Of a DNA stretch of 64,000 nt, positions 978 to 38,260 are shown one piece after another. The position numbers and the translations under genes were made by a program. Each line of letters opens with the position of its first letter. The stretch's first letter is position 1. Under the pieces are notes generated by a model. That model searched no databases. It was given only the letters and a program-made list of their open reading frames with translations, and was not told where the DNA came from. Source of the stretch: Halothiobacillaceae bacterium UBA5861 (lineage in GTDB: Bacteria; Pseudomonadota; Gammaproteobacteria; UBA5861); contig DJFX01000012.1 in NCBI GenBank assembly GCA_002432635.1, positions 112 to 64,111 on the forward strand. Reading direction: 5' to 3'.

Positions 978-1612
978 AGACACCTCTACAACAAGTCCTA
1001 GGCTCTGCACTCATTCTCTGCTTATTTGCAATCATCGGCACAGCGTTGGTTGCCCTGACTCATAAACAAACACGTGACCAAATTAAAGTGAATGAACGCC
1101 AGGAACTACTCGCCAGACTCTCACAAGTTGTCTCTCAAAGCGGGCTGGACAATGACCTTATCACCAGCGCGCTACCCGTTCACTCACCGGAATTACTGGG
1201 TAGCAAAGCACCTGTTCCCGCTTACCGAGCCACCCAGGACGGTCAACCCATTGCCGTTATTCTGACAGCCACCGCCCGCAATGGTTACAACGGAGGGATC
1301 CGGCTCTTGGTCGGTATACAAGCAGACGGCAAAATTTCTGGTGTGCGCGTTATCCAGCATAAAGAAACGCCGGGGCTGGGTGATGCCATCGAGGTCGAAA
1401 AGTCCAACTGGATACTGGGGTTTAATGGCCTGTCTTTATTAAATTTGTCCCCTTCCGACTGGGCGGTCAAAAAAGATGGGGGCGCCTTCGACCAGTTTAC
1501 AGGAGCGACCATTACGCCTCGCGCAGTCGTTGGCGCCGTTTACCGATCGCTGCAATTTTTTGAGAACAATCAAGAGCGGCTTCTGAGTGCAGAAACAGCA
1601 AATGATCAATAG
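974..1612 (+). CDS. rnfG: Rnf complex subunit G (FMN-binding)
   Basis: Its start overlaps the rnfD stop by 4 nt. Size, N-terminal TM helix and position between rnfD and rnfE are typical of RnfG/RsxG. Confidence 0.85.
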   Translation: MKTPLQQVLGSALILCLFAIIGTALVALTHKQTRDQIKVNERQELLARLSQVVSQSGLDNDLITSALPVHSPELLGSKAPVPAYRATQDGQPIAVILTATARNGYNGGIRLLVGIQADGKISGVRVIQHKETPGLGDAIEVEKSNWILGFNGLSLLNLSPSDWAVKKDGGAFDQFTGATITPRAVVGAVYRSLQFFENNQERLLSAETANDQ

Positions 1613-2013
1613 TTTTTTACAAATTTACTCAGCCAGTTTTGCCATTTTTGGTGATCTGTTTTGGGTGCATCAACCAGTTCAATCCCAATCAGATAATCCG
1701 CCCCTTTGTTGGATGGCATTGACCACTTAACAACCCCATGAAGAAAGAACTTGCCATGATGCCCTTCGATATTCACCCACAGGTCCAGTCCACACCCCAT
1801 CATTACTGGGTGGTCAACCCGCAACTGGAGCCCCTTCGGGGAAATATCGATCGTGCTGCTGGCAAACGTCTGACCTCTCAACGAAAGGTCTTCCCGGGAG
1901 TGGGCAATCTGCACGTAAAGACGAGACTGGTTCAGCAAACGTCCATCCGTTCGACGCTCGTCAATGCTTCTTCGCTGTATCAAAGGCCCTGTAGTCTTTA
2001 TACTCGTGGACAT
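1606..2013 (-). CDS. Single-domain PilZ c-di-GMP receptor
   Basis: Has the RRTDGR (RxxxR) motif followed about 35 aa later by DISPKG (DxSxxG). Lies antisense between rnfG and rnfE. Its stop overlaps the rnfG stop by 7 nt. Confidence 0.7.
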   Translation of the reverse strand: MSTSIKTTGPLIQRRSIDERRTDGRLLNQSRLYVQIAHSREDLSLRGQTFASSTIDISPKGLQLRVDHPVMMGCGLDLWVNIEGHHGKFFLHGVVKWSMPSNKGADYLIGIELVDAPKTDHQKWQNWLSKFVKNY

Positions 2014-6175: not shown

Positions 6176-7159
6176 ATGAATACACAGCCACACTATATGA
6201 TTGATCACTCTGAACCTGACGAACAAAAAACCACAAGCATCCCAGTTAATGGCACCATTCGTTCTCTGGGTGAAAAACAGTGCATCTACTATGAAGGCCA
6301 ATGGGTACGCTACTATGAGCCCATTCCCGATACACTGGCGTCTAAGAAACAACTCATCGACAACCTGAAAAAGCGGCTTTTTCACCACACTGAAAATGGC
6401 ATTAACACGCCGGGCTTTCGTTTGGAAATGGCCAGAGAAGCCTACGAAAAACAAACAGACCCAGCCAAAAAACGCGTGAATGGGGCCATGCTTGCCGGCG
6501 CCTTATTCAACCGGGCCGCCGATATTTTTACCGCATTAGTGGAACTGGAAGAAAAAGGCATTACCATCAGCACCAATGATGAGTTAATGGTCATGTGCGG
6601 TGAATGCTTTGCAGAAGCACTGGAACTCGGCCGCACCGTCAAACACTACAGCGGCGAAGAGGGTATTGACGAACTTTGGGGAGAGCCCTTCAAAGTCTTC
6701 ACCATGTCCATTCCCGATTATTACGCCAGCCGTTATCTGAAAGTTGCCAAAGCACTTAACAACATTGATGAAATTATCGGAATCCTCATTACTGTTTTTG
6801 AGGGCGATACCTCCTTTGAAGGTATCGAAGCGAAGCTGAAACACTTCAAAGGAGCCTCTCACTGTGCGTGTGAGACCATGAAAGTGGATCCGGAGTTCTT
6901 CAATATTTGGCCTTTGTTCGTAACCGCAAGCGAGCAAATTTCGGATTTTCAACCACTGACACCGCCCATGCACGACACGAGTAATTACCGGCGGGTACGC
7001 GCAGGTTGCCATGTACTCGAAAAAGGACGGCAACTGATTGAATACATTTCGAACGCGCGCGTGCCCATGCCCTTAAGTACAAAGAACTTTGCGGAAGATT
7101 GTGACCGTTATAAGCAATGTTGCAAAACAGGCCTGTGGGAAAAGTACTGGCGCCTCTAA
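6176..7159 (+). CDS. Hypothetical Cys-rich protein
   Basis: 327-aa ORF with good coding periodicity. Several Cys pairs (CGEC, HCAC, CDRYKQCC). No family recognised. Confidence 0.5.
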   Translation: MNTQPHYMIDHSEPDEQKTTSIPVNGTIRSLGEKQCIYYEGQWVRYYEPIPDTLASKKQLIDNLKKRLFHHTENGINTPGFRLEMAREAYEKQTDPAKKRVNGAMLAGALFNRAADIFTALVELEEKGITISTNDELMVMCGECFAEALELGRTVKHYSGEEGIDELWGEPFKVFTMSIPDYYASRYLKVAKALNNIDEIIGILITVFEGDTSFEGIEAKLKHFKGASHCACETMKVDPEFFNIWPLFVTASEQISDFQPLTPPMHDTSNYRRVRAGCHVLEKGRQLIEYISNARVPMPLSTKNFAEDCDRYKQCCKTGLWEKYWRL

Positions 7160-7242: not shown

Positions 7243-8541
7243 GTGTTCACTCTAAAAACAATGACCGATAACCACCCGCCCTCTCTGGCCACCTATGCAC
7301 GCATCATTATTGTTGCATCGATGGCTGGCATCATCAGCCATTTACTCCGCTCTTCGCTTGGTGTCCTTGGACCTGACCTCATGCAAGAACTTAGCTTCTC
7401 TGCCGAGTGGCTGGGCATTATGACAGGGCTGTTTTTTCTTGTCTTCGCACTCAACCAGATTCCACTGGGTATTTTATTAGACCGCTATGGTCCTCGGCGT
7501 GTTGTCAGCACATTCTTGCTCTTCACCATTGTAGGCTGTGGCCTTTTTGTTGTGGCCAACTCCGTCTGGATGTTGATTGCAGGACGCGTGATGATGGGCT
7601 TAGGGAGCTCGGCGTTAATCATTAGCTCCTTTGTTTTGCTGGCTCGCTGGTTCACACCCGAAAAGTATGCCAATGCCACATCCATTCTCATTGCTCTGGG
7701 TAATGCCGGTGGACTGTTAGCGACAGCACCACTGGCTGCACTGGCTGCCTGGTTAAGTTGGCGGGGTGCATTTGCAGTAGTTGCGGTTTTCTGTGCCATC
7801 GTTGCCGCCCTGGTCTTCTTTTTTATTCAGGACAACCCACCTGGTAAAAAAGTGAAACCGGTACCCAAGCAAAGCTTATCCGAACAGCTCAAAGGCACTT
7901 GGGTGATCATCAAAAATCCAGCGACCAAACACCTTATCGCTATTGCAGCCGTCGCTTACCCGTCTGTGGCTACGATTCTCGCACTGTGGGGAGGGCCTTT
8001 CCTCTTCGATGTCTATGGCCTAGATACCCTTGCACGCGGCAATGTTCTGCTGTGCATGGCCATCGCCGCGATTGTTTCTCCCCTTTTTTATGGCTGGCTC
8101 AACAATATTATTGGCACACGCGCGATTGCTTTTTTGGGGTCCAGCATCACGGTTGCGGTACTGTTAACGCTGGCATTCGCCCCTAAGATGGATCTATTTT
8201 TCATCACAGTCTTAATGACACTGTTAGGCGGCGGTGCAGGATACAATATGCTGGTATTACCCGTTTCCCGATTTTTCTTTCCGGAACACATGACTGGGCG
8301 CGCCGTTACAACGGTGAACATTGCCATCGTGGGTGGCGTTGCCATCATGCAAATGCTGACGGGCTTCATCGTGGGCGCCTTTCCAGAAGTCAATGGTTCA
8401 ACACCGGAAATTGCCTATCGAACAGTCTTCGCTACCTTGGCAATTTTCCTGACTTTGGGCACCTGGTATTTCGCACGACTTGGCCCACTGCCAAACAGCT
8501 ATATCGATCCTGACAACGATCAACAAAATAACAAGTCATAA
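7243..8541 (+). CDS. MFS transporter
   Basis: Twelve predicted TM segments and the MFS signature around DRYGPRRV. Confidence 0.8.
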   Translation: MFTLKTMTDNHPPSLATYARIIIVASMAGIISHLLRSSLGVLGPDLMQELSFSAEWLGIMTGLFFLVFALNQIPLGILLDRYGPRRVVSTFLLFTIVGCGLFVVANSVWMLIAGRVMMGLGSSALIISSFVLLARWFTPEKYANATSILIALGNAGGLLATAPLAALAAWLSWRGAFAVVAVFCAIVAALVFFFIQDNPPGKKVKPVPKQSLSEQLKGTWVIIKNPATKHLIAIAAVAYPSVATILALWGGPFLFDVYGLDTLARGNVLLCMAIAAIVSPLFYGWLNNIIGTRAIAFLGSSITVAVLLTLAFAPKMDLFFITVLMTLLGGGAGYNMLVLPVSRFFFPEHMTGRAVTTVNIAIVGGVAIMQMLTGFIVGAFPEVNGSTPEIAYRTVFATLAIFLTLGTWYFARLGPLPNSYIDPDNDQQNNKS

Positions 8542-9744
8542 CCCCATCACTAACCCCTGCGGATTGGTATAACGGGTTGCATGACGATCGGCGTCTTTAA
8601 TTCCCAGGGCATCTTCGGCTATCAATACGCGCTGCACAGAAGGCGCACCTTCTCCGACGAGAAACACATGTGCATAACTTGACAACCGGGCAATGCGGTA
8701 ATCTTTGGCCAGGGCATACCCCCCGAATAATTCAGACGCAAATCCCGCTGCCTGCTTCAAGGCCAGTGAAGCAGCGTATTTTGCCTGCGCTGACAAGCGA
8801 TTGGCAGGCAGGTCATTATCCATCAGCTGTGCCGTGTGGTACGTCATTAACCGTGCGGACTCAATGTTGACTAATGCATCAGCAATCATCCCCTGTGTAA
8901 ACTGGTAGTTTGCCAGTGGCTTGCCGCGCACCTCGCGTTCTTTTACGTACTGAATAGCCTCATCCAAACACGCTCGGGCAAGCCCGACACTTCGCGCCGC
9001 GACTGAGACCCGACCCGCTTGAATGGCATGCATCGCATAGCGAAAACCCTGGCCTTCCTCACCCAAAAGGTTTTCTTTGGGGACTTCAAAGTCATCGAGA
9101 AAGATCTCACAACTGCGCAAGGACTGCGACAAGCCCACAAACTCTACGGGGCGAGCCTCCCAACCCGGGTACTTTTTGGGCTCTACAATAAAAGCCGAGA
9201 CGCCTTTGGCTCCGGCATTCCTATCGGTTTTCGCAAAGAGAATGCCGGTATCCGTCTGATCTGCCAACGTAATAAACATTTTAGAGCCGTTAAGATAGTA
9301 AGAGCCTCCCCGGCGTTTGGCGGTCGTGCGCATGTTGCCGAGCGCATCCGATCCGCCGCCTGGCTCAGTCAAAGCCCAGCAACCAATGTGCTGGCCGGAC
9401 AATAAATCAGGAATATAGCGTTTGATCTGCGCCTCGCTGCCACCCGCATAAATCGTGTAAGGGCACGTCATCCCTTGTGGGTTGTGGCAGAGTGAGAAGC
9501 CGATATCCAACCGAGCCAACTCTTCTGCCACAACAGCCATAGCGAGAAACCCCATCTGGCTCCCACCCAGCGACTCGGGAAAAACCGGCCCATACAAGCC
9601 CGCCTCTCCGGCCTTCAAAATCAAATCCCGGGGAAACGCGCCTTGCTCTTCATAGCGGGCCATTTCTGGCACAACGGCTGTCTCCATAAAACGGATAACG
9701 CTTTCCCGTAAATGATGAATTTCTTCAGGTAAAAATTGATCCAT
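8536..9744 (-). CDS. Acyl-CoA dehydrogenase
   Basis: ACAD fold motifs ([20 protein letters not shown]-terminal GG..A helix region). Confidence 0.85.
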   Translation of the reverse strand: MDQFLPEEIHHLRESVIRFMETAVVPEMARYEEQGAFPRDLILKAGEAGLYGPVFPESLGGSQMGFLAMAVVAEELARLDIGFSLCHNPQGMTCPYTIYAGGSEAQIKRYIPDLLSGQHIGCWALTEPGGGSDALGNMRTTAKRRGGSYYLNGSKMFITLADQTDTGILFAKTDRNAGAKGVSAFIVEPKKYPGWEARPVEFVGLSQSLRSCEIFLDDFEVPKENLLGEEGQGFRYAMHAIQAGRVSVAARSVGLARACLDEAIQYVKEREVRGKPLANYQFTQGMIADALVNIESARLMTYHTAQLMDNDLPANRLSAQAKYAASLALKQAAGFASELFGGYALAKDYRIARLSSYAHVFLVGEGAPSVQRVLIAEDALGIKDADRHATRYTNPQGLVMGL

Positions 9745-9855
9745 TCCTCTCCCCTCTTACAGTTAATGGACTAATGGTTCTATCAAAAGCATAACCGATT
9801 TAGCTGCCAAGCTGTATGAGTTACACTCTGCCTCTCGTCAACCTAGGGAAATGCC

Positions 9856-10623
9856 ATGGAGATCAATCACCGCTACCGGCCGGGAAACACGAACGCACTC
9901 ATTCTTTTTATCCACGGTCTGGGGTGCGATCACCACGCTTTTGACGAAGCCTGGGAAAGTGAAGCATTACAAGGCTACGCCTTACTTGCACCCGATCTGC
10001 CAGGATGTGGCAACAGCCCGCTTCCGAGCGATCAAACACCCACAATGCCTTTTTATGCGGAGGCGCTTGATCAATTACTCTCGGGTTACACCTTTGAGCA
10101 TCTGCATATCGTCGCACACAGTATGGGCAGCGCCCCGGGGCTCTTATTGACCCAAAAGCCACCACTGAAACTGGCTTCCTTCGTTAATATCGAAGGCAAC
10201 CTGGTGCCTGAAGATGCCGGGATGCTCAGCCGACGCACCGCAGAAACGGATTTGGAAACCTTCCAAACAAAAAACTATTTAAAACTCATTGCCAGCGCAG
10301 CACGTTCGGAGGATCCAGGCACCCGCTATTGGGCCGAACAGCTCAAACGCTGCCCGGCAGAGGTTTATCATGCAAAGAGCTGCTCACTGGTCGAGTGGTC
10401 AGACAGTGGCCAACTGCTTAAGATTTTTTCCGCGCTCACTGTACCCAAACTGTACGTGTATGGTGATCGAAGCGTGAACTCAGACGTGCTCAAACAACTG
10501 GATGCCATCCCCCAGCACAAAATCCGCGAATGTGGGCATTTTGTGATGAATGAGCAGCCAAAAGCCTTTTATTCGTTGCTTGCTGACTTTCTAAAAAGTA
10601 CAACCACGGTACAAAACACATGA
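9856..10623 (+). CDS. Alpha/beta hydrolase
   Basis: HGLG oxyanion motif and nucleophile elbow AHSMGS. Overlaps the next gene by 4 nt. Confidence 0.8.
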   Translation: MEINHRYRPGNTNALILFIHGLGCDHHAFDEAWESEALQGYALLAPDLPGCGNSPLPSDQTPTMPFYAEALDQLLSGYTFEHLHIVAHSMGSAPGLLLTQKPPLKLASFVNIEGNLVPEDAGMLSRRTAETDLETFQTKNYLKLIASAARSEDPGTRYWAEQLKRCPAEVYHAKSCSLVEWSDSGQLLKIFSALTVPKLYVYGDRSVNSDVLKQLDAIPQHKIRECGHFVMNEQPKAFYSLLADFLKSTTTVQNT

Positions 10624-12134
10624 CAAACGAAAACCTCTACCATCTGCTCGAAACCCGCTTCCCCACGGGCACCCAAGCTCTGGCATTGACAAGCCCTGAG
10701 AGGCGGTATTCCTACCAAGACATGCAAGTCATCGTGAACCGCTACTGCCAATACATTGCAACAATTGGCCTTCGCCCTGGCGACCGCCTTGCCGTACAAA
10801 CGGATAAATCACCCGAAGCTGTTTTTTTATACCTTGCCTGTTTAAAGGCCGCCGTTATCTACATTCCGCTGAATATTGCTTATACGGCGACCGAAATGGC
10901 TTACTTTATTGAGAATGCTCGCCCATCCTGTCTGGTATGCAGCCCAGACAATCAGACGGCCCTCACACCCATTGCGGAAAAATTAGGGGTCAAAACGATT
11001 GAGACCATGGATGCGCAGGGCCAAGGCAGCTGGGCAACACAAGCCAGCAAAATGACAGAGGCCTGCGACACTCAGCCCGTTCATGGTGATGACATCGCCG
11101 TTATCCTTTACACGTCCGGCACAACTGGCCGCTCCAAAGGAGCTATGCTCAGCCACGAAAACCTGAAACATAACGCGCAGACGCTGCACACACTTTGGGG
11201 GTGGAAACCCGGTGACGTACTGTTGCACGCACTCCCTATCAATCATGCTCATGGCTTGTTTGTCGCCCTTCACTGCTCACTGCTAAACGGCTCGAACATG
11301 CTGTTTCTACCGCGATTTGACCCCACAACCGTCATCAAGCTGTTGCCTGAAGCGACTGTAATGATGGGCGTACCCACCTTTTACACGCGTCTGCTGGCTC
11401 AGGATGGCTTCAACAAAGCGGTTTGCCGCAATATGCGGCTGTTCATCAGTGGTTCAGCGCCCTTGCTCGAATCCACCTTTGAAGCCTTTGAAGAGCGCAC
11501 CGGGCATCGCATTCTTGAACGTTACGGGATGACAGAAGCCGGCATGATCACCTCTAACCCGCTGGAAGGAGAACGGGTTGCCGGCAGTGTCGGCTTCCCC
11601 TTACCCGGTACCGAGGTCCGCGTGGTGAATGATAGCGGCGTTGCGCTCCCTGACGGGGAGAAAGGCATGTTGCAAATCCGGGGGAAGCATGTTTTCAAAG
11701 GTTACTGGCAAATGCCGGAAAAAACCCGTGAAGAATTCACCGAAGATGGTTTCTTTATGACCGGAGACATCGCCACCTGTATTGACAGCCGGATCACCAT
11801 CGTCGGCAGGGGGAAAGATTTAATCATCAGTGGCGGTTACAACGTTTACCCCAAAGAGGTAGAACAGGTTATTGATGCCATTGAGAATGTGCTGGAGTCT
11901 GCGGTGATTGGGCTGCCAGACCCCGACTTTGGGGAGTCAACCACCGCTATTGTTGTGCCAAGTGACCCCTCAGCCCCCCCTACTGATACGGTGATCATTC
12001 AGGCAACCAAAGCGGCTCTGGCGAACTACAAGGTCCCCAAACAGGTATTCTTTCTGGACGCATTGCCACGAAACAGCATGGGAAAAGTACAAAAAAATAA
12101 ACTGCGGGAACAGTTTACATCCGGTCACAGCTAG
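10620..12134 (+). CDS. Malonyl-CoA synthetase-like AMP-dependent ligase (MatB-like)
   Basis: AMP-binding motif YTSGTTGRSKG, then HALPINHAHGLFVA, GYNVYPKEVE and a C-terminal K. The overall pattern is that of the MatB subfamily. Confidence 0.75.
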   Translation: MTNENLYHLLETRFPTGTQALALTSPERRYSYQDMQVIVNRYCQYIATIGLRPGDRLAVQTDKSPEAVFLYLACLKAAVIYIPLNIAYTATEMAYFIENARPSCLVCSPDNQTALTPIAEKLGVKTIETMDAQGQGSWATQASKMTEACDTQPVHGDDIAVILYTSGTTGRSKGAMLSHENLKHNAQTLHTLWGWKPGDVLLHALPINHAHGLFVALHCSLLNGSNMLFLPRFDPTTVIKLLPEATVMMGVPTFYTRLLAQDGFNKAVCRNMRLFISGSAPLLESTFEAFEERTGHRILERYGMTEAGMITSNPLEGERVAGSVGFPLPGTEVRVVNDSGVALPDGEKGMLQIRGKHVFKGYWQMPEKTREEFTEDGFFMTGDIATCIDSRITIVGRGKDLIISGGYNVYPKEVEQVIDAIENVLESAVIGLPDPDFGESTTAIVVPSDPSAPPTDTVIIQATKAALANYKVPKQVFFLDALPRNSMGKVQKNKLREQFTSGHS

Positions 12135-16673: not shown

Positions 16674-16704
16674 CAGCGGGGTGTGAGCCACATCCACCCC
16701 GCTG
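16674..16704. terminator. Bidirectional stem-loop between convergent operons
   Basis: Perfect 8-bp inverted repeat cagcgggg/ccccgctg with a 15-nt loop, between the hadB-like stop and the TIGR04282-like stop. Confidence 0.4.
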
Positions 16705-16716
16705 ACTTTGTCTCAG

Positions 16717-17364
16717 TCAGTCAATCCAATCGCCGCTGACTGGCTGAATTCCCGAATCCATCAGTCTTTTTAAATCCTCTGGCCGATCCAAGTCCCACGT
16801 TTCAGACAATTCATCCCAGCGCCACCTTAAAACCTGTAACCGGCTTCTTGTTTGCGCCATAACACGTTGTGTTCCCCACGCGATCTTCCAGAAAAGATAA
16901 GGGTGCACTTGCCTTAAGCCAATCAGGGTATAGCCGCCGTCCATTGCCGGGACAAACACGGCAGGCACGCGGTCCAACGACTGAATCGCAGACTGAAATG
17001 TTGCTTTGCTTAAGGCCGGGCAATCCGATCCAACAAGGATCACTTTACGATGAACGTTCAGCCCCTGTTGGAAAGCAAAATGCATACGCCCCCCCAAGTC
17101 AAAACCCTTCTGGCGATAAAAAGCAGCCTGATAGCGTTGTGCCAAGCATACAAAAAACGGCTCCCGGCGTTCGCCTTCTCCCCATATTTCCACATGTGCA
17201 TGGGATACCTCGCTGGCTGTCTTTAATGTTTTTTCCAGTAATTGGGTATGCAATCTGGCCGCCTGCGTGGGCGAAATAGCTTCAAATAAACGGGTTTTTA
17301 CCCGCCCCGCCTCGGGCTTTTTCCCAAAAACAATGATTTTTGCGCCTTTTAATCGGCAGTTCAT
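16717..17364 (-). CDS. TIGR04282/DUF2064-family transferase, the family that partners with ArsS-like radical SAM proteins
   Basis: GT-A-like nucleotide-binding N-terminus (KAKIIVFGKKPEAGRVKTRL) and a DGG motif. It is the last gene of the four-gene minus-strand operon. Confidence 0.6.
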   Translation of the reverse strand: MNCRLKGAKIIVFGKKPEAGRVKTRLFEAISPTQAARLHTQLLEKTLKTASEVSHAHVEIWGEGERREPFFVCLAQRYQAAFYRQKGFDLGGRMHFAFQQGLNVHRKVILVGSDCPALSKATFQSAIQSLDRVPAVFVPAMDGGYTLIGLRQVHPYLFWKIAWGTQRVMAQTRSRLQVLRWRWDELSETWDLDRPEDLKRLMDSGIQPVSGDWID

Positions 17365-18044
17365 CGGGTATTCCGGTAGCGTTGAGCTAACTGATGCGGG
17401 TCAGCGCCGAGATAGAACGCCAAGCGGAGACGCCACATCAGCCAGACGGTCTTGAAGATACCGTTCTGCTCCCAACGTCGGCTGGATGTCACCAAACGTT
17501 GTGATAAACACACGGGACGAGAGTGTGCCTTGGCCTGCTTTGAAAATTGAATGTCTTCCATCAGAGGCATGAGCGGAAACCCACCGATTTGCTCAAAAAA
17601 TGTCCGCATAACAAAGATGCCCTGATCTCCCGTCGCAATGCCACTCAGACGAGAGCGAAAATTTATCATGGTTTCAATGACCCTCAGCGGGCTATGGCTC
17701 CCAGATAAGCGGACATCAAAACGTCCCCAAGGTCGCCCTGTTTTTGTGACGGCCCCTTCGATTACGGCAGCACAATCTATAGGTGCTAGTGTATCGGCAT
17801 GTAAAAAACACAAAATATCGCCCTGGCTGGCGGTTGCGCCCCTGTTCATTTGCACAGATCGGCCCGCCGCTGACTGGATAATATGGTCAACGTACTCTCG
17901 GGCTAACGGAATTGTTTGATCCTGGCTGCCCCCATCGACGAGTACAATTTCATGCCCGTTTGCCCGCTCAGCTTGCAAGCAGTCCAGGGTTTTCTGAATC
18001 ACGGTCTCTTCATTCAAGGTGGGGATGATGAAACTCACCGTCAT
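17361..18044 (-). CDS. GT2 glycosyltransferase, TIGR04283-like
   Basis: IIPTLNEE start, D-G-GS-D and the GT2 DxD/ED motif. Overlaps the downstream gene by 4 nt. Confidence 0.7.
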   Translation of the reverse strand: MTVSFIIPTLNEETVIQKTLDCLQAERANGHEIVLVDGGSQDQTIPLAREYVDHIIQSAAGRSVQMNRGATASQGDILCFLHADTLAPIDCAAVIEGAVTKTGRPWGRFDVRLSGSHSPLRVIETMINFRSRLSGIATGDQGIFVMRTFFEQIGGFPLMPLMEDIQFSKQAKAHSRPVCLSQRLVTSSRRWEQNGIFKTVWLMWRLRLAFYLGADPHQLAQRYRNTR

Positions 18045-18050
18045 GATGAT

Positions 18051-18431
18051 TCACTCATCTGCTGCGCTTATACCAAGACGATTGCCTTCTGAGTCTCTGA
18101 TAATGGCATAGTGACCCGCACCTCCCGGTATGGCCACAGCAGCAGCCAACACTTCGCCACCATATTCGTTAACTCGCTCCAGCAGGGGCGCCAATGCCAA
18201 CCCTGGATTGAGGAAAATCAATGGCCCCCGTTCAGATGGTATGTAGCCTTCCGCACAGATAATCGCACCCTGAGCTTGTGGCCGACCAAAGGTTAATAAG
18301 CCCACGAAATGCGAATCAATTTGTTGTGTGGGTATCGTGCATTCAAACACACGGCTGTAAAAATATTTGGCACGGGAGAATATTTCCACGGGAATTTCAA
18401 ACCAGGCTACGCCCGTCGTGTTTATTTGCAT
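18051..18431 (-). CDS. VOC (glyoxalase/bleomycin-resistance fold) family protein
   Basis: About 126 aa with the paired beta-alpha-beta-beta-beta module pattern. Sits between the radical SAM and GT2 genes with 6- and 13-nt gaps. Confidence 0.6.
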   Translation of the reverse strand: MQINTTGVAWFEIPVEIFSRAKYFYSRVFECTIPTQQIDSHFVGLLTFGRPQAQGAIICAEGYIPSERGPLIFLNPGLALAPLLERVNEYGGEVLAAAVAIPGGAGHYAIIRDSEGNRLGISAADE

Positions 18432-18444
18432 TCTTTCCTGCCTG

Positions 18445-19407
18445 TTAACTCAACGCGCCGCCACAGCTCGACCCCTGGCCTGCCGTACACCCATAGCAAT
18501 GGTCCGCTGTGGCAATCGGCAACCCGTACAGCTTCGCCTCAATTAATTCTTTAATGTGCCTGCGCTTAAGTGCATTACCCGACAGAGGCATGTTTAACAT
18601 TTGATTAAAATCGCAATCATAGACATATCCATTGTAATCCACACTGATCGTCGTACGGCACATGACTTCTTCGAGATTATCGTCATTGTGAGACGATTTC
18701 AGCAGGGACATGTAGTCTTCAAACTGGCCGCGGGAAACCAGTGTGCTGCCAAAACGCTGAATCGGCAGGTTAGCCAGCACCAGCAGGGAGTTAAATGTGA
18801 CATCAAAATGCTCTGACAGATGGCTTTTATAATCGGCCTCCAGACCTGTTTGACCGGGAGGCAGCACCGGCCCTTGAGGGTTATAAACCAAATCCAGTAC
18901 AAGCCCGGAACCCGCTTTACCGTAGCCTAACTGATTCAATTTTTGTAGCCCACGGATGCTCGGCCAATACACATTTTTACCTCGTTGCGCTTTTACATTT
19001 TCTTCCAAATAGCAGGGAAGCGATGCAACGATGTGGATGCAATTTTCGGCCAAAAACTCAGCCAACGCTTCTTGTCCGGGCTCTTCGAGCACTGTCAGAT
19101 TACAGCGGTCGATAATGTGCATACCGAGGTTTTTCCCGGCCTCCACCAAGTAGTAAAACTGCGAGTTCAACTCGGGCGCTCCTCCGGTTAAATCGAGCGT
19201 TTTTACACCGCTGGCTTGCATAAACTCGATCACTTGATCGGCCGTTTTCCGGTCCATCATTTCTGTGCGTTTAGGTCCTGCATTGACGTGGCAATGCAAG
19301 CATGACAGGTTGCAGTAATAACCAAGATTGACCTGTATGACTTCTAAATGTGATCGTTTGATCGGAGGAAAATCAGAGACTTTGAGTAACGGGTAGGTAT
19401 CATGCAT
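18445..19407 (-). CDS. ArsS-like radical SAM protein (arsenosugar-type 5'-deoxyadenosyl transferase family)
   Basis: CNLSCLHC (CxxxCxxC) radical SAM motif near the N-terminus. The C-terminal Cys-rich tail HCYGCTAGQGSSCGGAL is characteristic of the ArsS/TIGR04167 family. Confidence 0.7.
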   Translation of the reverse strand: MHDTYPLLKVSDFPPIKRSHLEVIQVNLGYYCNLSCLHCHVNAGPKRTEMMDRKTADQVIEFMQASGVKTLDLTGGAPELNSQFYYLVEAGKNLGMHIIDRCNLTVLEEPGQEALAEFLAENCIHIVASLPCYLEENVKAQRGKNVYWPSIRGLQKLNQLGYGKAGSGLVLDLVYNPQGPVLPPGQTGLEADYKSHLSEHFDVTFNSLLVLANLPIQRFGSTLVSRGQFEDYMSLLKSSHNDDNLEEVMCRTTISVDYNGYVYDCDFNQMLNMPLSGNALKRRHIKELIEAKLYGLPIATADHCYGCTAGQGSSCGGALS

Positions 19408-19512
19408 AAATGCTCCAGTACAGCTGGGATGTTTATTGATTTTTCTATGGAGACTCAGACCAGCTGAAAAAGTTCCTTTTTAACGAGGTGGGAAGGTAGC
19501 AACGCTGTGCGA

Positions 19513-21603
19513 TCAAGCGGGTTCGCTTTCAGCCGTGAGGGGATGGGGCAAGCCTAAGCGGTACCCTTGCCCATAATTGATGCCGATTTCCAGCAGCGCT
19601 TTTATGATTGGCTCACTACTGACATATTCAGCAATGGTTTTGACGCCCAAGGTGCATGCTACCGAGTGAATGGCTTCCACCACAGAGCGATCCACTGCAC
19701 TGTGTGTGATCGACTGTACTAAACGGCCATCAATTTTGATGTAATCGACCGGTAATTTTTTCAATGTGCCAAATGAGGAAAAACCCGTGCCGAAACCGTC
19801 CAGAGCAACCCGACAACCCAACTGTTTTAGCTCTGTGAGAAAAGGCAGAACAGAAGCCATATTACGAACAACGACCGTTTCATCGATTTCAAAGCAAATT
19901 TTGCTCGCAGGAACTTGATATTTATTCAGGTGTTGATGAATAAAACTGGGAAGTGTTTTATCGCTCACGACGGTTCCGGAAAGGTTAATCGACAAGCTAC
20001 TGACCGGCCTTTTATGCATCATCACCTCATTGAAATGATGAAATGCCTTGTCAATCACCCAGCGATCAATTTTTGTCATCACCCCGTATCGCTCAGCAGC
20101 AGGAATGAAGGACCCTGGAGGCAAGAGTTTGCCATCGTTACGGGGGCTCAACCGAAGCAGTATTTCGTAGAGCTCCACTCGGTTGTTTTTTTCAGGCAAT
20201 GACTTAATCGGTTGGCAGTACAATTCAAACCGGTTGTCTCTTAACGCCCGGTTGAGGTCAGAAACTTTTTGGTTCTCTGTCAGCCTCACTTTCCCCACCG
20301 GCTCGTCAGGGGTGTAAATTTGCAAGCGGTTGCGGCCTTTATCCTTTGCCTGGTAACAAGCTATATCGGCCTGGTGAATCAAGGTTTCTGTATCTTTTGC
20401 CAACACGTCAATAGTAACCAGCCCAATACTGCAACCCACTTCAAACGAATAATTTTCCCACGTGAAGCGAAAGTCACTGACGGTTTCAATTAAGCCCTGC
20501 GCCAGACGAGTCGCGCGATCAGGGGGGCAGTGCTCCAGCAATAACGCAAACTCATCCCCCCCGATCCGGGCCAAGGTATCCCGTCCACGGACCTGTCCTG
20601 ACAAAAGCGCCGTAAGCTGGCGCAAGAGTTCGTCACCGGCCAAGTGCCCCACAGTGTCATTGACAAGCTTGAAGCGATCCAGATCAATGTAACATAAGGC
20701 ATGCTCATACCCCCGCTCGCGGGCACCAGTGATGGCGACTTGCAACCGCTGTTCGAATTCCTCACGATTTACCAGGCCCGTTAAAGAATCATGAGTGGCC
20801 TGATAAGCAATTTTATTAGCGATCGCATTCCACTCAGTGACATCTGAAAAGAGCAACACAACGCCGCGCAATGAACCCTGGCTATCCAACATGGGAGAAG
20901 CTGTTTGCTGAATCGCGTATTCTTTCCCTTCCCGATTCAGCAAGATAACGGTGCCACAATTAATCTCTTTTCTTTGCGAAAGGCACGCCATGACCGGGCT
21001 GTCAATTTTTGCACCGCCAGGCTCTGCTGACAGGTGCATCACCTCATCAATCGCATGTTCGCTGACTTGATCAGCCAATACTGACAACAACCTTTCTGCC
21101 ACCGGATTAATGTATTGGATCTGTCCGCGTGTATCGGTGGCAATAATCCCGCTACTGACCGCCTGGCACATCAACTGAAAGCGCTCTTTCTCTAACGCCA
21201 GGATATCCCGCTCCTGAAGTGTCGCATCTTCATTGTTCAAACAAAGCAGGAGACAATACTGCTTTCCCTCTTTTATTCTCACCGCAGTCATGCCAACCTT
21301 AAGCCGTTGATGGCTCTCGGTATTCAAGCACTCGACAACTCGCCGGCCTGAGCAGCCTCTACGAATGGCAGTCACCAGCATTGACGCTACCGACGACTGC
21401 GCGTCTTCCGGGAAAAATGATTGAAATTGGCGCGCTTTTATTTGCGCAATCTCCAGGCCCAGCACCTGGGTTGCACTTGGACTCGCACAGAGTACCCGGT
21501 CGGATGCCGAATCTACCAACAAATAAACATCGCTGGCACAGCCAAACATTTGATCAAAAATGAGGTCCACCTGATCCGACCCACACAGAAGCTTATCTGT
21601 CAT
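19513..21603 (-). CDS. PAS-PAS-GGDEF-EAL c-di-GMP signalling protein
   Basis: GGDEF motif, EAL-domain motifs (ELYEILLRL, DDFGTG-like, QGY) and N-terminal PAS repeats. Confidence 0.9.
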   Translation of the reverse strand: MTDKLLCGSDQVDLIFDQMFGCASDVYLLVDSASDRVLCASPSATQVLGLEIAQIKARQFQSFFPEDAQSSVASMLVTAIRRGCSGRRVVECLNTESHQRLKVGMTAVRIKEGKQYCLLLCLNNEDATLQERDILALEKERFQLMCQAVSSGIIATDTRGQIQYINPVAERLLSVLADQVSEHAIDEVMHLSAEPGGAKIDSPVMACLSQRKEINCGTVILLNREGKEYAIQQTASPMLDSQGSLRGVVLLFSDVTEWNAIANKIAYQATHDSLTGLVNREEFEQRLQVAITGARERGYEHALCYIDLDRFKLVNDTVGHLAGDELLRQLTALLSGQVRGRDTLARIGGDEFALLLEHCPPDRATRLAQGLIETVSDFRFTWENYSFEVGCSIGLVTIDVLAKDTETLIHQADIACYQAKDKGRNRLQIYTPDEPVGKVRLTENQKVSDLNRALRDNRFELYCQPIKSLPEKNNRVELYEILLRLSPRNDGKLLPPGSFIPAAERYGVMTKIDRWVIDKAFHHFNEVMMHKRPVSSLSINLSGTVVSDKTLPSFIHQHLNKYQVPASKICFEIDETVVVRNMASVLPFLTELKQLGCRVALDGFGTGFSSFGTLKKLPVDYIKIDGRLVQSITHSAVDRSVVEAIHSVACTLGVKTIAEYVSSEPIIKALLEIGINYGQGYRLGLPHPLTAESEPA

Positions 21604-22033: not shown

Positions 22034-22909
22034 ATGCATTTAACCGCTCAAGCATTTCGCGCCTGGCGCAATAAACGTATCACCTTACTGGGCATGTCGG
22101 GTGTCGGCAAAACCCACCTATCCACCCAACTCAGATCGTATAACTGGTTCCATTACTCAGGTGATTACCGGATAGGTACCCGCTATCTTGACGAGGCGAT
22201 TCTCGACTTAATCAAACAACAAGCAATGAAAACGCCTTTTTTAAAGCAACTGCTGCGCAATGACTGGATTTATATCCGCAACAACATTCGAGTAGATGAC
22301 CTTGGCCCTGTGCTGAGCTTTGTAGGCAAACTGGGTAACCCTGAAAAAGGGGGCGTTGAATTGAGTGAATTCATGAGTCGGCAGGCCCAATACCGCTGTG
22401 CTGAAATTGAATCCATGCGAGATGTACCCGCATTTATAGAAAAGGCACAAACGGTGTACGGCTATCAACATTTTGTCAACGATGTTGGCGGCAGCCTGTG
22501 TGAACTGGATGAACCGGGCATCATTGAGTTACTAGCAAAACACACATTGATTATCTATATCAAAACCACGGGGCCTCAAGAAGAGGAGGTTTTAATCCAG
22601 CGTGCTCAGTCAGACCCTAAACCGCTGTACTACCGCCCTGCCTTTTTACAGGAGTATTTATCACACTATTTAAATGAAAAGGGGCTCCTGTACGCTGCGG
22701 AGATGGACCCTGATGACTTCACCCGCTGGATCTTCCCGCACCTGTTCCGGTCCCGGTTACCTCGCTACGAAGCGATCACTCAGGCTTATGGCTATACCGT
22801 CACATCACGCGACATAGCGACTTTACGGGACGAGCAAGACTTTTTACAACTGGTTGAAGCCGCCCTGGAAAACCCGGAAGGAAAGCAAGATGCCCCTGGT
22901 CGCACATAA
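22034..22909 (+). CDS. P-loop NTPase of unknown function
   Basis: N-terminal Walker A LLGMSGVGKTH. No further family recognised. Its 3' end overlaps the next gene by 20 nt. Confidence 0.55.
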   Translation: MHLTAQAFRAWRNKRITLLGMSGVGKTHLSTQLRSYNWFHYSGDYRIGTRYLDEAILDLIKQQAMKTPFLKQLLRNDWIYIRNNIRVDDLGPVLSFVGKLGNPEKGGVELSEFMSRQAQYRCAEIESMRDVPAFIEKAQTVYGYQHFVNDVGGSLCELDEPGIIELLAKHTLIIYIKTTGPQEEEVLIQRAQSDPKPLYYRPAFLQEYLSHYLNEKGLLYAAEMDPDDFTRWIFPHLFRSRLPRYEAITQAYGYTVTSRDIATLRDEQDFLQLVEAALENPEGKQDAPGRT

Positions 22910-23969
22910 CGCACTGCCCACGTTTGAAAAGCTTCATAAAGAAGGCCAAACCGTCCTCTCTGTCGACAAAGCACTCAATCAAGACATCCGGGACCTGCAC
23001 ATTGGCCTGCTCAACATCATGCCAGACACCGCCTTGGCCGCTACAGAGCGCCAATTCATGCGCCTTATTGGAAAAAGCAACCCCATTGCCCAGTTTTATG
23101 TCCACTTATTCACACTGCCTGAACTCAAACGCAGTGAGGACGCTCAGCAGCACATTGATGCCTACTACGAATCTTTTGAAGACATTCAGTCCCGAGGACT
23201 GGACTCACTGATTATCACCGGGGCCGCACCACAAAGCGAATCATTACCCAATGAGCCTTTCTGGTCGCCACTGTTCGAAGTCATTGACTGGGCGCACGAA
23301 AATGTCACATCAACACTTTGCTCATGCCTGACCACGCACGCCATACTTCAGGGGCGCTACCAACAGATGCGCAAGCCCCTGGTTCAAAAAGCCTGGGGCG
23401 TCTTCCCTCACTGGGTCACCAACAAGGAACACCCACTGGTCAGTGATATCAACACTCACTTCGACGTACCGCACTCCCGGTGGAACGCGGTCACGCGCAG
23501 CCAGTTCGATGCTGCTGGCCTGCATACGCTTGTCGAAAGTGAAACAGGTGTACACCTTGCCACCAGCCCCGACGGGATCCGTACGGTCTTCTTCCAAGGG
23601 CACCCCGAATACGATACGATCTCTTTATTGAAAGAGTACAAGCGCGAAGCACAGCGCTATGCCCGTGGCGAGGTAGAAATGCCTCCCGCGTTTCCGGAGC
23701 ACTATTTCAAGACACAGGAAAAAGCAATATTAACGGAATACATCGGCCGGCTGACAGACGCCCGACACGACAAACACAAGGCAATACCTGATTTTCCTGA
23801 AACCAAAATTGCCAAGCGATTACAAAACACATGGACGGATACAGCCACCGCTGTGATTGGCAACTGGATGGGCTGCGTCTACCAACTGACCCACCGTGAA
23901 CGGAAAAAACCTTTTATGGACGGCATCAACCCCAATAACCCACTCAAGCTGCCATTTGTGGCCGAATAA
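22890..23969 (+). CDS. Homoserine O-acyltransferase (HTS/MetA) family enzyme with a C-terminal extension
   Basis: Aligns to E. coli MetA across the catalytic core: LNIMPD, VTSTLCSC (nucleophilic Cys), FQGHPEYD (His/Glu of the triad), HSRW. It is about 50 aa longer than MetA. Confidence 0.7.
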   Translation: MPLVAHNALPTFEKLHKEGQTVLSVDKALNQDIRDLHIGLLNIMPDTALAATERQFMRLIGKSNPIAQFYVHLFTLPELKRSEDAQQHIDAYYESFEDIQSRGLDSLIITGAAPQSESLPNEPFWSPLFEVIDWAHENVTSTLCSCLTTHAILQGRYQQMRKPLVQKAWGVFPHWVTNKEHPLVSDINTHFDVPHSRWNAVTRSQFDAAGLHTLVESETGVHLATSPDGIRTVFFQGHPEYDTISLLKEYKREAQRYARGEVEMPPAFPEHYFKTQEKAILTEYIGRLTDARHDKHKAIPDFPETKIAKRLQNTWTDTATAVIGNWMGCVYQLTHRERKKPFMDGINPNNPLKLPFVAE

Positions 23970-24816: not shown

Positions 24817-25884
24817 TTGAGACGCACAGAGAAAACCTTACTGGAGCAAATGCAGATCAGCGACGTGGAAATTGCACGGCGTATGGAGTTGTTAAATCTC
24901 GATAAAAACGCACTCGACCTGTTGTGTGGCCAGCAACGTCTTGTTGAAGAAAATATTGATGCCATCGTCGAAGAGTTTTACAAAAGACAAACAGAAATTG
25001 ACGAAATTGCACTACTCATCGGTGATGCCGACACATTAAGACGCTTACGCAACGCTCAACGTCAGTATGTCATCGACCTCTTCTCAGGGAACTGCAACAG
25101 CGAATATGTTAACAATCGCCTACGTATTGGAATGGTTCATAAGCGTATTGGGGTGGAGCCCAAACTTTACCTGTCCGCAGTCAAAACACTAAAAGAACTG
25201 GTCCTGAGGGTCTTAAAAGAAAATATCGAAAAAGAAACATTCCTAAAAGTCGCTGATGCACTGGACAAACTCCTTTACTTTGACACCACACTTGTCTTTG
25301 ACACTTACATTGACAGCCTGGTTGGGGAAATAGAGACCGCCAAAAAAAGAACCGAAGAATATGCCAAAAGCCTGGAAGACAAAGTAGCAGAAAGAACGAA
25401 GCAGCTCGAGGAGCAGGCCAAACTTGACCCATTGACCAATTTATATAATCAACGCGCAATGCAAGATGCCTTCAAACGGGAATTGGCCACGGCAAAGCGA
25501 CGGAGAAGTAAACTTTCACTGATCTATCTTGATATTGATTGCTTCAAAAAAATCAATGACGAATACGGTCATATCAGAGGCGATGAAGTCCTCAAACACC
25601 TCGGTAAAACGCTACTCAACACCATTCGTGAAATGGATATTCCCTGCCGATACGGAGGCGATGAGTTTTGCATCATATTGCCAGACTGTACCATTGAAAA
25701 TGCGCAGGAAGTTTCCAATCGAATCATCCATTCATTTTCTGAAAAATACCCGGAATTTTCGCTCAGCATCGGCATTGCTGAGACGGGATCGGAAGAATAC
25801 AGTGATGAAAATACACTGATAAAGTCGGCCGATAAGAAAATGTACCTGGCCAAAAAACAAACCGGCTCCTATATCTGCCACTAA
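24817..25884 (+). CDS. Globin-coupled sensor diguanylate cyclase (protoglobin-like N-domain plus GGDEF)
   Basis: N-terminal 160 aa with a proximal-His-type motif MVHKRIGVEPKLYL and a distal Tyr candidate (EEFYKRQ), a coiled-coil linker, and a GGDEF domain carrying an RxxD I-site. Start is TTG at 24817 (RBS GGGGA) or ATG at 24850. Confidence 0.65.
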   Translation: MRRTEKTLLEQMQISDVEIARRMELLNLDKNALDLLCGQQRLVEENIDAIVEEFYKRQTEIDEIALLIGDADTLRRLRNAQRQYVIDLFSGNCNSEYVNNRLRIGMVHKRIGVEPKLYLSAVKTLKELVLRVLKENIEKETFLKVADALDKLLYFDTTLVFDTYIDSLVGEIETAKKRTEEYAKSLEDKVAERTKQLEEQAKLDPLTNLYNQRAMQDAFKRELATAKRRRSKLSLIYLDIDCFKKINDEYGHIRGDEVLKHLGKTLLNTIREMDIPCRYGGDEFCIILPDCTIENAQEVSNRIIHSFSEKYPEFSLSIGIAETGSEEYSDENTLIKSADKKMYLAKKQTGSYICH

Positions 25885-26330: not shown

Positions 26331-26702
26331 ATGGAACTCGGCGCTTTTTCAATCAGTCTGGCGGTAAAAGATCTTAATACATCAAAACAATTTTACGAAA
26401 AACTGGGGTTTACTGTTTTTGGTGGAGACCCTACACAAAACTGGCTCATTTTAAAAAATGGCGACCATACGATTGGACTCTTCCAAGGCATGTTTGAAGA
26501 AAACATCCTCACCTTCAATCCTGGATGGGACAGTCACGCCCAACCTCTGAATACATTTACCGATGTTCGCGAACTGCAACGTCAGCTCAAAGCACAAGGC
26601 ATAACCTTTGCGACCGAGGCCGATGAAAATACCACAGGCCCCGCCAGCTTTGTCATTGCCGACCCCGACGGCAACACGATCCTGGTGGACCAACACCGCT
26701 AG
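26331..26702 (+). CDS. VOC family protein (glyoxalase-like)
   Basis: 123 aa with VOC fold pattern. RBS AGGAG upstream. Confidence 0.6.
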
Positions 26703-30888: not shown

Positions 30889-31917
30889 ATGCAAAAACCC
30901 AATATTCCCAAGGATGAGCAATTCAGGCTTCAAACACTGCATTCGCTGAGCATTCTAGATACGCCCGCTGAAAACCGTTTTGACTGCATCACACGCATGG
31001 CTAAACGCTTGTTTAATGTGCCTATCGCGCTCGTCAGCCTGGTGGATGAAAACCGCCAGTGGTTTAAATCAAGTATTGGGCTCGAAGCCTCCGAAACACC
31101 TCGGGATATCTCTTTTTGTGGGCACGCTATTTTGAGTAAAGGTATTTTTATCGTTCCTAATGCCTTGGAAGATGAACGCTTTTCTGATAACCCTTTAGTG
31201 CTTAAAGATCCCTACATCCGCTTTTATGCAGGCTACCCGTTAAAAGCGCTCAATGGCCAGCAGTTGGGAACGCTGTGCCTGATTGACCGAAAGCCGAGAA
31301 CCTTGGATGACGGAGACCTTGCTACACTAAAAGACCTAGCTTCAACCGTCGAACGAGAGCTGGCCGCCATTGAGCTGGCCACAGTGGATGAATTAACGCG
31401 AGTCTCCAATCGGCGAGGGTTCTCTCTACTGGCAAGTCACTGCCTGCGGCTTTGCACCCGCCAAAAATTGCCTGCTTCCTTGGTCTACTTTGATCTTGAC
31501 AACTTTAAACCGATCAATGACCGGTTCGGGCACGCAGAAGGCGACAAAGCCCTGGTTGCCTTTGCTGATCAATTGAAAGGCGCCTGCCGGGATTCGGATA
31601 TCCCTGTACGCTTAGGTGGCGATGAATTTGCCTTGCTGTTAATCAATACAACTCTGGACATCGCCGAAGGTTTTATCAGTCGCTTCAAAGAGTCAGTAGA
31701 CACCTACAACGAATCCGTCAATCGTGGATACGATATTCTTTTTTCACATGGCATCGTCGCGTTTGATCATCAAAAACCCTCAACCATCCAGGAAATGCTC
31801 ACAGAAGGTGATGCAGAAATGTATCGACGGAAACAATTGAGAAAAAACCATTCGACGTGTGAGTCAACACAACCTGGCAATAAAGCCAGCGCTCATCATA
31901 TACAGCCCTTTATCTAA
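30889..31917 (+). CDS. GAF-GGDEF diguanylate cyclase
   Basis: N-terminal GAF domain, GGDEF motif and an I-site RxxD. Confidence 0.85.
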   Translation: MQKPNIPKDEQFRLQTLHSLSILDTPAENRFDCITRMAKRLFNVPIALVSLVDENRQWFKSSIGLEASETPRDISFCGHAILSKGIFIVPNALEDERFSDNPLVLKDPYIRFYAGYPLKALNGQQLGTLCLIDRKPRTLDDGDLATLKDLASTVERELAAIELATVDELTRVSNRRGFSLLASHCLRLCTRQKLPASLVYFDLDNFKPINDRFGHAEGDKALVAFADQLKGACRDSDIPVRLGGDEFALLLINTTLDIAEGFISRFKESVDTYNESVNRGYDILFSHGIVAFDHQKPSTIQEMLTEGDAEMYRRKQLRKNHSTCESTQPGNKASAHHIQPFI

Positions 31918-35761: not shown

Positions 35762-35785
35762 CTTTTTTGTTCTCTGTTATTTGGC

Positions 35786-37372: not shown

Positions 37373-37416
37373 GTTCTTACCCTCCGTCTGGTTTTATTTC
37401 AAAAGGGCCAGATTAA

Positions 37417-38160: not shown

Positions 38161-38260
38161 ACTACCAACTCCTAACCCAGTTTTTCTGATAGGCTAACGC
38201 CATTTCTTATTTTTATTAATAAGCATTATTAAGCAAAGTAAAGAATATTCAAAGTCTTAT

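Follow-up and report, generated by a model that had tools for sequence, protein, structure and literature searches.

The window analysed here (64,000 nt, positions 112 to 64,111 of contig DJFX01000012.1, assembly GCA_002432635.1, Halothiobacillaceae bacterium UBA5861) carries on its minus strand four adjacent genes encoding the radical SAM protein ArsS, a VOC-fold protein, a family 2 glycosyltransferase (GT2) and a DUF2064 protein. We read this locus as probably a standard member of the widespread ArsS/TIGR04283/TIGR04282 "arsenosugar biosynthesis" cassette, carrying one lineage-specific extra gene and following the arsenosugar route proposed below. The core cassette is already known and is labelled automatically by annotation pipelines. 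The lack of a neighbouring arsM gene, from which the first-pass annotation of this DNA had concluded that the acceptor is probably not arsenic, is ordinary for the family and is not a sign of new chemistry. The cassette's one unusual feature is the VOC gene, a lineage-specific insertion that makes the locus a minor architectural variant.

The four genes form one tightly packed operon. The arsS gene (18445..19407, minus strand, 320 amino acids) stops 13 nt before the ATG of the VOC gene (18051..18431, minus strand, 126 amino acids), ahead of which lies a ribosome-binding site, AGGAAAG; 6 nt separate the VOC stop from the ATG of the GT2 gene (17361..18044, minus strand, 227 amino acids), and the latter overlaps the DUF2064 gene (16717..17364, minus strand, 215 amino acids) by 4 nt (ATGA). 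These open reading frames and spacings agree exactly with the four genes and the single operon of the first-pass annotation. The proteins are on record as HBA35615-HBA35618, from an uncultured gammaproteobacterial metagenome-assembled genome (MAG).

The four proteins were searched against NCBIfam, with its curated cut-offs, and Pfam. ArsS scores 447.4 bits with TIGR04167 (cut-off 300), its residues 16-319 covering profile positions 2-303 of 303, and matches PF12345 (DUF3641, 183.8 bits) and PF04055 (Radical_SAM, 47 bits). The cluster motif CNLSCLHC provides the CxxxCxxC cysteines C32, C36 and C39, the tail of the protein reads DHCYGCTAGQGSSCGGALS, and the DUF3641 C-terminal domain ends in the Cys-rich tail CYGCTAGQGSSCGGALS; motif and tail had both been noted in the first-pass annotation. 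In an alignment of 26 family sequences, window ArsS among them, this protein keeps every invariant column, including ten cysteines (C32, C36, C39, C102, C132, C250, C265, C304, C307 and C315); it is the Cys form and not a selenoprotein. A SPASM peptide maturase, the other identity considered for it, is excluded because the best maturase model reaches 41.7 bits (cut-off 650), and this on the radical SAM core only; moreover, the C-terminus is DUF3641 and not SPASM. No solved ArsS structure was found. Cyanobacterial ArsS adenosylates DMAs(III), a trivalent methylated arsenical, to 5'-deoxy-5'-dimethylarsinoyl-adenosine (DDMAA) (PMC13598754), and SsArsS works together with SsArsM (PMC8552651); judged by its equivalog-level membership, the window enzyme would likewise transfer a 5'-deoxyadenosyl group to DMAs(III). 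The family is large, with at least 8000 protein clusters at E <= 1e-20 and presence in at least 600 species-representative genomes, a genome scan that returned Proteobacteria only, and beyond close relatives the best 120 matches listed remain 63-72% identical to window ArsS.

The two transferase genes, which lie in the same operon as arsS, are assigned just as clearly. The GT2 protein aligns over the whole length of TIGR04283 with 270.8 bits (cut-off 182), matches PF00535 (Glycos_transf_2) and has the invariant acidic motifs D37-G-G-S-x-D42 and H82-x-D84; against structures its profile finds generic GT2/GT-A enzymes (DPM synthase, GpgS, ArnC), in keeping with a GT-A fold. The DUF2064 protein scores 199.7 bits with TIGR04282 (cut-off 134) and 94.5 bits with PF09837, and both identities thus stand as first proposed. 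That all three core proteins lie above curated equivalog cut-offs, with matches over their full length, supports the arsenosugar reading.

Although the NCBI name of TIGR04282 implies a glycosyltransferase, the DUF2064 protein is most likely a nucleotidyltransferase, since its sole characterised relatives are nucleotidyltransferases acting on phospho-substrates. Besides the structural-genomics entry 3CGX (E 9e-23), the only characterised structures matched by a 25-sequence DUF2064 profile are guanylyltransferases, namely FbiD (6BWG, 4e-5), 3-phospho-D-glycerate guanylyltransferase (7P97, 7e-4) and CofC (2I5E, 1e-3), and the protein itself has a secondary match to the CofC model TIGR03552 (E 1.7e-13, 50.7 bits). 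With these CofC/FbiD guanylyltransferases of F420 biosynthesis it has in common the fold family and the N-terminal nucleotide-binding motif P-x-x-G-x-x-K-(T/S)-R-L. Unlike them, it falls far under the CofC cut-off of 105 bits, and no F420 genes lie near the window cassette.

The cassette was placed in its family by comparing 82 loci (80 fetched arsS loci, the window and the locus L002; L-numbers are locus labels), whose open reading frames were obtained by conservation-guided selection together with profile searches over all stop-to-stop frames. Of these loci, 52, which belong to Beta- and Gammaproteobacteria, have 5 kb or more of sequence on either side of arsS and served as the complete-flank set; neighbours were scored within 6 kb of arsS. 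GT2 and DUF2064 genes are both found near arsS in 40 of the 52 (77%), and the order arsS, GT2, DUF2064 recurs across loci, which substantiates the statement that these two families are the standard partners of ArsS. By the same count, arsM is near arsS in only 5 of the 52 (10%) and in 11 of all 82, so that about 87-90% of proteobacterial arsS loci have no adjacent arsM and its absence does not define membership in the ArsS family. In a neighbour-joining tree, the arsM-linked ArsS proteins are interspersed with the unlinked ones; in fact, two of them (from L011 and L022) fall in the sister group of the window ArsS clade, and window ArsS is 60-64% identical to linked and 59-64% to other members. 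Since the absence of arsM is the normal state in Proteobacteria and marks no subfamily of ArsS, it is not in itself a pointer to a substrate other than arsenic, and the step from one to the other in the first-pass annotation is not supported.

The absence itself is well established for this locus. A profile built from the ArsM proteins that neighbour ArsS has no match in the 64-kb window, all reading frames included. The surroundings from about -7 to +68 kb in window coordinates were covered with the Pfam tables of called genes on identical public contigs, gaps being scanned directly, and no member of the methyltransferase, ArsC, ArsB/ACR3, ArsR or ArsH families was found there, so neither inside the window, as had been noted, nor just outside it, where an arsM would have told against the non-arsenic proposal, is such a gene present. 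A query with the ArsM of the sister clade gave no homologue on the long contigs of the window's cassette lineage (207,928, 175,521 and 89,232 bp) or on the 4.29-Mb chromosome of L006 among the best 120 of at least 7969 matches, which is not evidence of absence.

Where arsM does adjoin arsS, its product is a genuine ArsM. The ArsM of L044 matches 5EVJ with E 4e-95 (solved ArsM structures 5EVJ/4FR0), and the arsS-adjacent ArsMs keep the CC, GCG, SNCVINL and GECL motifs. Over 11-12 loci they comprise at least three different N-terminal types, and arsenic is supported as the substrate of the family because different ArsM types have repeatedly been recruited next to arsS. Two further contigs, reached via ArsM, carry the order VTT, FAD oxidoreductase, ArsS, ArsM, GT2, DUF2064. 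It may be added that fatty-acid hydroxylase family (PF04116) and Dus genes (L090:1921-2778, L091:1977-2831) stand at the head of the extended ArsS-ArsM clusters of two long contigs.

Other genes accompany arsS as well. An MTAP-type 5'-methylthioadenosine phosphorylase gene lies directly upstream of it in 5 of the 52 complete-flank loci and 8 of the 82 (e.g. L061:4224-5108, TIGR01694, 308 bits vs 275), which fits phosphorolysis of a 5'-substituted adenosine product. The commonest neighbour outside the trio is a VTT/DedA-flavoprotein disulfide reductase (30/52; 35/82). Its VTT/DedA membrane domain is fused or adjacent to a MerA/Lpd-like flavoprotein reductase (NF004991, 520 bits) in L019:11119-13284, L090:2768-4845, L091:2821-4906 and about 30 other loci. 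A TIGR03169 "N-term-to-SelD" oxidoreductase (L038:17208-18332, 307 bits vs 310), DUF547 (L018:15559-16395) and DUF3047 (L077:12352-13131) also recur, and hint at a selenium or redox link of the extended cluster. In Betaproteobacteria, a protein of about 350 amino acids with no Pfam or NCBIfam match (cluster c3, e.g. L038:12252-13316) is encoded beside arsS in 18 of the 82 loci.

The second gene of the window operon deserves separate consideration. Its product has no Pfam or NCBIfam match even at E <= 10, the gathering score of PF00903 not being reached; yet the 126-residue open reading frame is confirmed, as far as sequence comparison and structure prediction can do so, as a genuine but divergent VOC-fold protein with the paired beta-alpha-beta-beta-beta arrangement. 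Of 31 homologues, 27 match PF22677 and most of these also PF00903; an orthologue, P0002 (62% identical), is just over the PF00903 cut-off (21.5 vs 20.6), and a 99%-identical copy bears the NCBI name "VOC family protein". An AlphaFold2 (AF2) model built with 24 homologues has a predicted local distance difference test score (pLDDT) of 87.9, and Foldseek places E. coli glyoxalase I (GlxI, 1F9Z) on top of its matches (template modelling score, TM, 0.71), followed by SA1046, GloA2, TnmS1/UcmS2 and FosX. There are 163 Protein Data Bank (PDB) matches at E <= 1e-3, and the top 50 are VOC proteins throughout. Moreover, hhalign aligns the family with GloA (K-12 record) at 95% probability. The VOC assignment of the first-pass annotation is therefore sound.

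Its suggestion that the protein might be a metal-handling partner fared differently. The metal ligands of E. coli GlxI, which according to established literature are H5, E56, H74 and E122, correspond in the hhalign alignment to W10, I58, L71 and G120 of the window protein, none of which is a ligand, and the consensus of the VOC family at these positions is likewise non-ligand. No conserved cysteines or Cys pair occur in the family alignment. The known C-As lyase ArsI is also a member of the VOC superfamily; the window protein does not match the ArsI/CadI model NF041414, which is reached by 5 of 24 relatives, at E >= 0.039. Metal handling is thus unsupported, and glyoxalase-like, FosA-like and ArsI-like roles were rejected in view of the ligand positions and the absent conserved cysteines. 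In comparison with the known proteins of the same fold, glyoxalase I, the antibiotic-binding Ble/TnmS/UcmS proteins, FosX and ArsI, the window protein keeps 0/4 of the metal ligands of GlxI and has neither the ArsI-type cysteines nor a match to the ArsI model, and its nearest relatives in sequence are uncharacterised (2R6U). Most likely, and this is a guess, it is an accessory without a canonical metal site, which either binds small molecules or serves them as a kind of chaperone, or else is an enzyme that works without metal. A second VOC protein encoded in the window (26331-26702, plus strand, 123 amino acids, PF00903 47.7 bits) is a canonical VOC/glyoxalase, 8 kb from the cassette and outside the operon.

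As had been remarked, the VOC gene is not part of the canonical trio. A search of the 82 loci with its profile, over 10 kb on each side of arsS, gives a match in the window and L002 alone; L002 and L003 have the same synteny as the window, i.e. GGDEF-EAL, ArsS, VOC, GT2, DUF2064 and a convergent MaoC pair. Between the window and L002 the amino-acid identity is 80% for ArsS, 64% for VOC, 61% for GT2 and 53% for DUF2064, and synonymous sites are saturated (proportion of synonymous differences, pS, about 0.8). Compared with their L002 orthologues, all four genes show purifying selection. The ratio of nonsynonymous to synonymous proportions (pN/pS) is 0.30 for the VOC gene, on par with its partners (GT2 0.35, DUF2064 0.40) at these saturated synonymous sites, which indicates that the gene is maintained by selection. 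The position that it occupies between arsS and GT2 is held by arsM in L011, L090, L091 and others, and elsewhere the same junction hosts a VTT-FAD oxidoreductase or clusters c3 and c27. Distant VOC homologues (33-40% identity) have other, unrelated neighbourhoods. One of them, P0004, precedes genes for a UbiA prenyltransferase, a type III polyketide synthase and a methyltransferase (L004:10001-13092), in what looks like an alkylresorcinol/quinone-type cluster.

Taken together, the comparative data suggest a route of adenosylation, MTAP-type phosphorolysis, CofC-like nucleotidyl activation and GT2 transfer. ArsS would reductively cleave S-adenosylmethionine (SAM) and put the 5'-deoxyadenosyl radical on the arsenic of DMAs(III), giving DDMAA. 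An arsM that is not linked to the cassette, or dimethylarsenic in the environment, may be the source of the DMAs(III). A housekeeping nucleosidase or an MTAP-type phosphorylase could then remove the adenine, as the MTAP genes directly upstream of arsS in other loci suggest. The CofC/FbiD-like DUF2064 protein would, by analogy with its characterised relatives, convert a phospho-intermediate into an activated nucleotide diphosphate conjugate, the intermediate being most simply 5-arseno-ribose-1-phosphate or alternatively a phospho-aglycone, and the GT2 enzyme might finally form a riboside, e.g. on glycerol or glycerophosphate. The VOC protein could be an accessory that handles one of the pathway's substrates or products; of the whole scheme, this is the least secure element.

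The closest characterised counterpart is the ArsM-ArsS arsenosugar pathway of Synechocystis sp. PCC 6803, described by Xue et al. 2019 and Cheng et al. 2021, which are cited in PMC8552651, PMC12159101 and PMC13598754. Its ArsS belongs to the same radical SAM family as the window protein (TIGR04167, with CxxxCxxC and the Cys-rich DUF3641 tail) and, as judged by family membership, presumably shares its chemistry. Unlike the Synechocystis module, window arsS has no adjacent arsM, and its host is a heterotrophic-type gammaproteobacterial MAG rather than a cyanobacterium. In architecture, the nearest match is the "arsenosugar biosynthesis" trio TIGR04167/TIGR04283/TIGR04282 labelled by the NCBI Prokaryotic Genome Annotation Pipeline (PGAP), e.g. 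in Aromatoleum (PMC8801600) and Modicisalibacter (PMC13077682), in which one operon holds these three families in identical order. Unlike this trio, the window has the VOC gene between arsS and GT2, and unlike many betaproteobacterial versions it is without DedA-flavoprotein reductase, TIGR03169, DUF547, DUF3047, MTAP and ArsM.

Several observations weigh against the arsenosugar reading. No arsM, MTAP or ars gene lies within about 75 kb of sequence around the cassette. The NCBI names of the families rest on gene neighbourhood, and in the searchable literature no experimental characterisation of proteobacterial ArsS, TIGR04282 or TIGR04283 proteins was found. Frequent partners such as the DedA/VTT-flavoprotein reductase, TIGR03169, DUF547 and DUF3047 hint at redox or selenium chemistry outside a simple pathway, and the function assigned to the VOC protein is guesswork. 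A rival reading, in line with the first-pass annotation, is that arsM-less cassettes adenosylate and glycosylate a non-arsenic acceptor (selenium, sulfur, antimony or another soft nucleophile), with the VOC protein handling the substrate in place of ArsM. This would accord with the lack of arsM in the roughly 75 kb covered, with the scarcity of adjacent arsM among proteobacterial loci, with the selenoprotein members implied by the NCBIfam name of the family, with the frequent position of ArsS beside the "N-term-to-SelD" oxidoreductase and the MerA/Lpd-like disulfide reductase, and with the occurrence of the VOC gene in the exact slot of arsM. We consider it quite unlikely, however, since arsM adjacency is scattered over the ArsS tree with no separate clade and window ArsS lies no closer to unlinked than to linked members; the equivalog cut-off is passed by a wide margin with every invariant cysteine kept; the independent, repeated recruitment of ArsM argues for arsenic; unlinked supply genes are commonplace; and the VOC protein has neither metal ligands nor conserved cysteines. 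A bolder idea still is that, in the arsS-[x]-GT2 slot of this lineage, the function of ArsM has passed to the VOC protein, which would deliver a different substrate to ArsS or capture an externally acquired one, candidates being environmental dimethylarsenic and a non-arsenic soft nucleophile. The cassette would then be a scavenging or alternative-substrate version, and the VOC protein would found a new, metal-centre-free subfamily of organo-metalloid-handling proteins, a prospect that we regard as improbable.

The place of the VOC gene can also be explained with a fully conventional cassette. Perhaps it is an unrelated, co-transcribed passenger (e.g. a generic detoxification or binding protein) at a permissive junction, and the cassette works as the three-gene version does. 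Its restriction to two related lineages among the 82 loci, the unrelated contexts of its distant homologues and the readiness with which the arsS-GT2 junction takes insertions would all agree with this. Yet the gene has stayed in place over a divergence that has saturated the synonymous sites, its pN/pS is on par with those of GT2 and DUF2064, and the tight spacing on both sides and a ribosome-binding site of its own imply that it is necessarily expressed together with its neighbours; we therefore hold a mere passenger to be possible but unlikely. That it is instead a C-As lyase resembling ArsI, or some other VOC enzyme that depends on metal (glyoxalase or FosA type) and processes organoarsenicals, has in its favour that ArsI belongs to the same superfamily and that the window protein has the VOC fold; but the unmatched ArsI/CadI model, the lack of a conserved Cys pair, the W, I, L and G at the ligand positions and the absence of ArsI structures from the top 50 fold matches make this very improbable. 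The arsenosugar reading, with the VOC protein as an accessory, thus remains the one that we favour.

The operon is flanked by two non-coding elements. Right after the DUF2064 stop, between the operon and the convergent MaoC gene, lies a GC-rich hairpin, CAGCGGGGTG(11 nt)CACCCCGCTG (16674..16704, minus strand), with a perfect 10-bp stem (-28.5 kcal/mol, z -2.67), which likely marks the 3' end of the operon. For want of a T-run it was missed by the terminator scan. At the other end, a 105-nt leader (19408..19512, minus strand) with a GGAG ribosome-binding site separates arsS from the same-strand PAS-GGDEF-EAL gene upstream. It contains a 7-bp inverted repeat, CAGCTGG at 19460-19466 and CCAGCTG at 19421-19427, which could be an operator. 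A promoter scan found no sigma-70 consensus in this leader, and an Rfam scan of the cassette region gave chance-level matches only, with no RNA family in the leader.

The wider neighbourhood contains the Rnf complex, MazG, AmgK/MurU-like genes, SAICAR synthase, MetA, several GGDEF proteins and, in addition, the canonical glyoxalase, GST, Grx, Prx, Dps and IlvA. The window is unusually rich in cyclic di-GMP (c-di-GMP) signalling genes, encoding a PilZ protein (1606-2013, minus strand), the PAS-GGDEF-EAL protein directly upstream of arsS (19513-21603, minus strand), a protoglobin-GGDEF sensor (24817-25884, plus strand) and a GAF-GGDEF protein (30889-31917, plus strand). Two paralogous gene sets (8536-12134 and 34613-39151) each encode an acyl-CoA dehydrogenase, an AMP-binding ligase and an alpha/beta hydrolase, with a short-chain dehydrogenase/reductase (SDR) in the second. 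The first-pass annotation had pointed to such c-di-GMP and lipid genes as the setting of the cassette. They are indeed present, but as a clue to function they are uninformative, because they reflect local synteny common only to one related lineage; a functional link of the cassette to its MaoC/hot-dog, acyl-CoA and GGDEF-EAL neighbours was considered and rejected, their co-occurrence with it being limited to the window and L002. A 291-residue P-loop-like protein with the motif GMSGVGKT and no Pfam match (22034-22909, plus strand) adjoins metA (HTS; 22854-23969, plus strand), and this pair stands beside arsS in the window and L002 and on the opposite side in L009. About 3 kb downstream of the cassette, L002 (10107-12376) has an EgtD-like (Methyltransf_33) and EgtB-like (DinB_2 + FGE-sulfatase) pair that is absent from the window. 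Three plus-strand open reading frames of the window have no Pfam family at E <= 1e-3 (39744-41777, 677 amino acids; 53488-54888, 466; 6176-7159, 327).

For the window itself, the significance of these findings is limited, as the core cassette is recognised and the missing arsM typical. Its one local novelty is a VOC gene in the place of arsM, which offers a small handle on the supply of substrate to ArsS. Should heterotrophic marine Gammaproteobacteria indeed turn scavenged dimethylarsenic into arsenosugars, the range of known sources of organoarsenicals in the sea would become wider.

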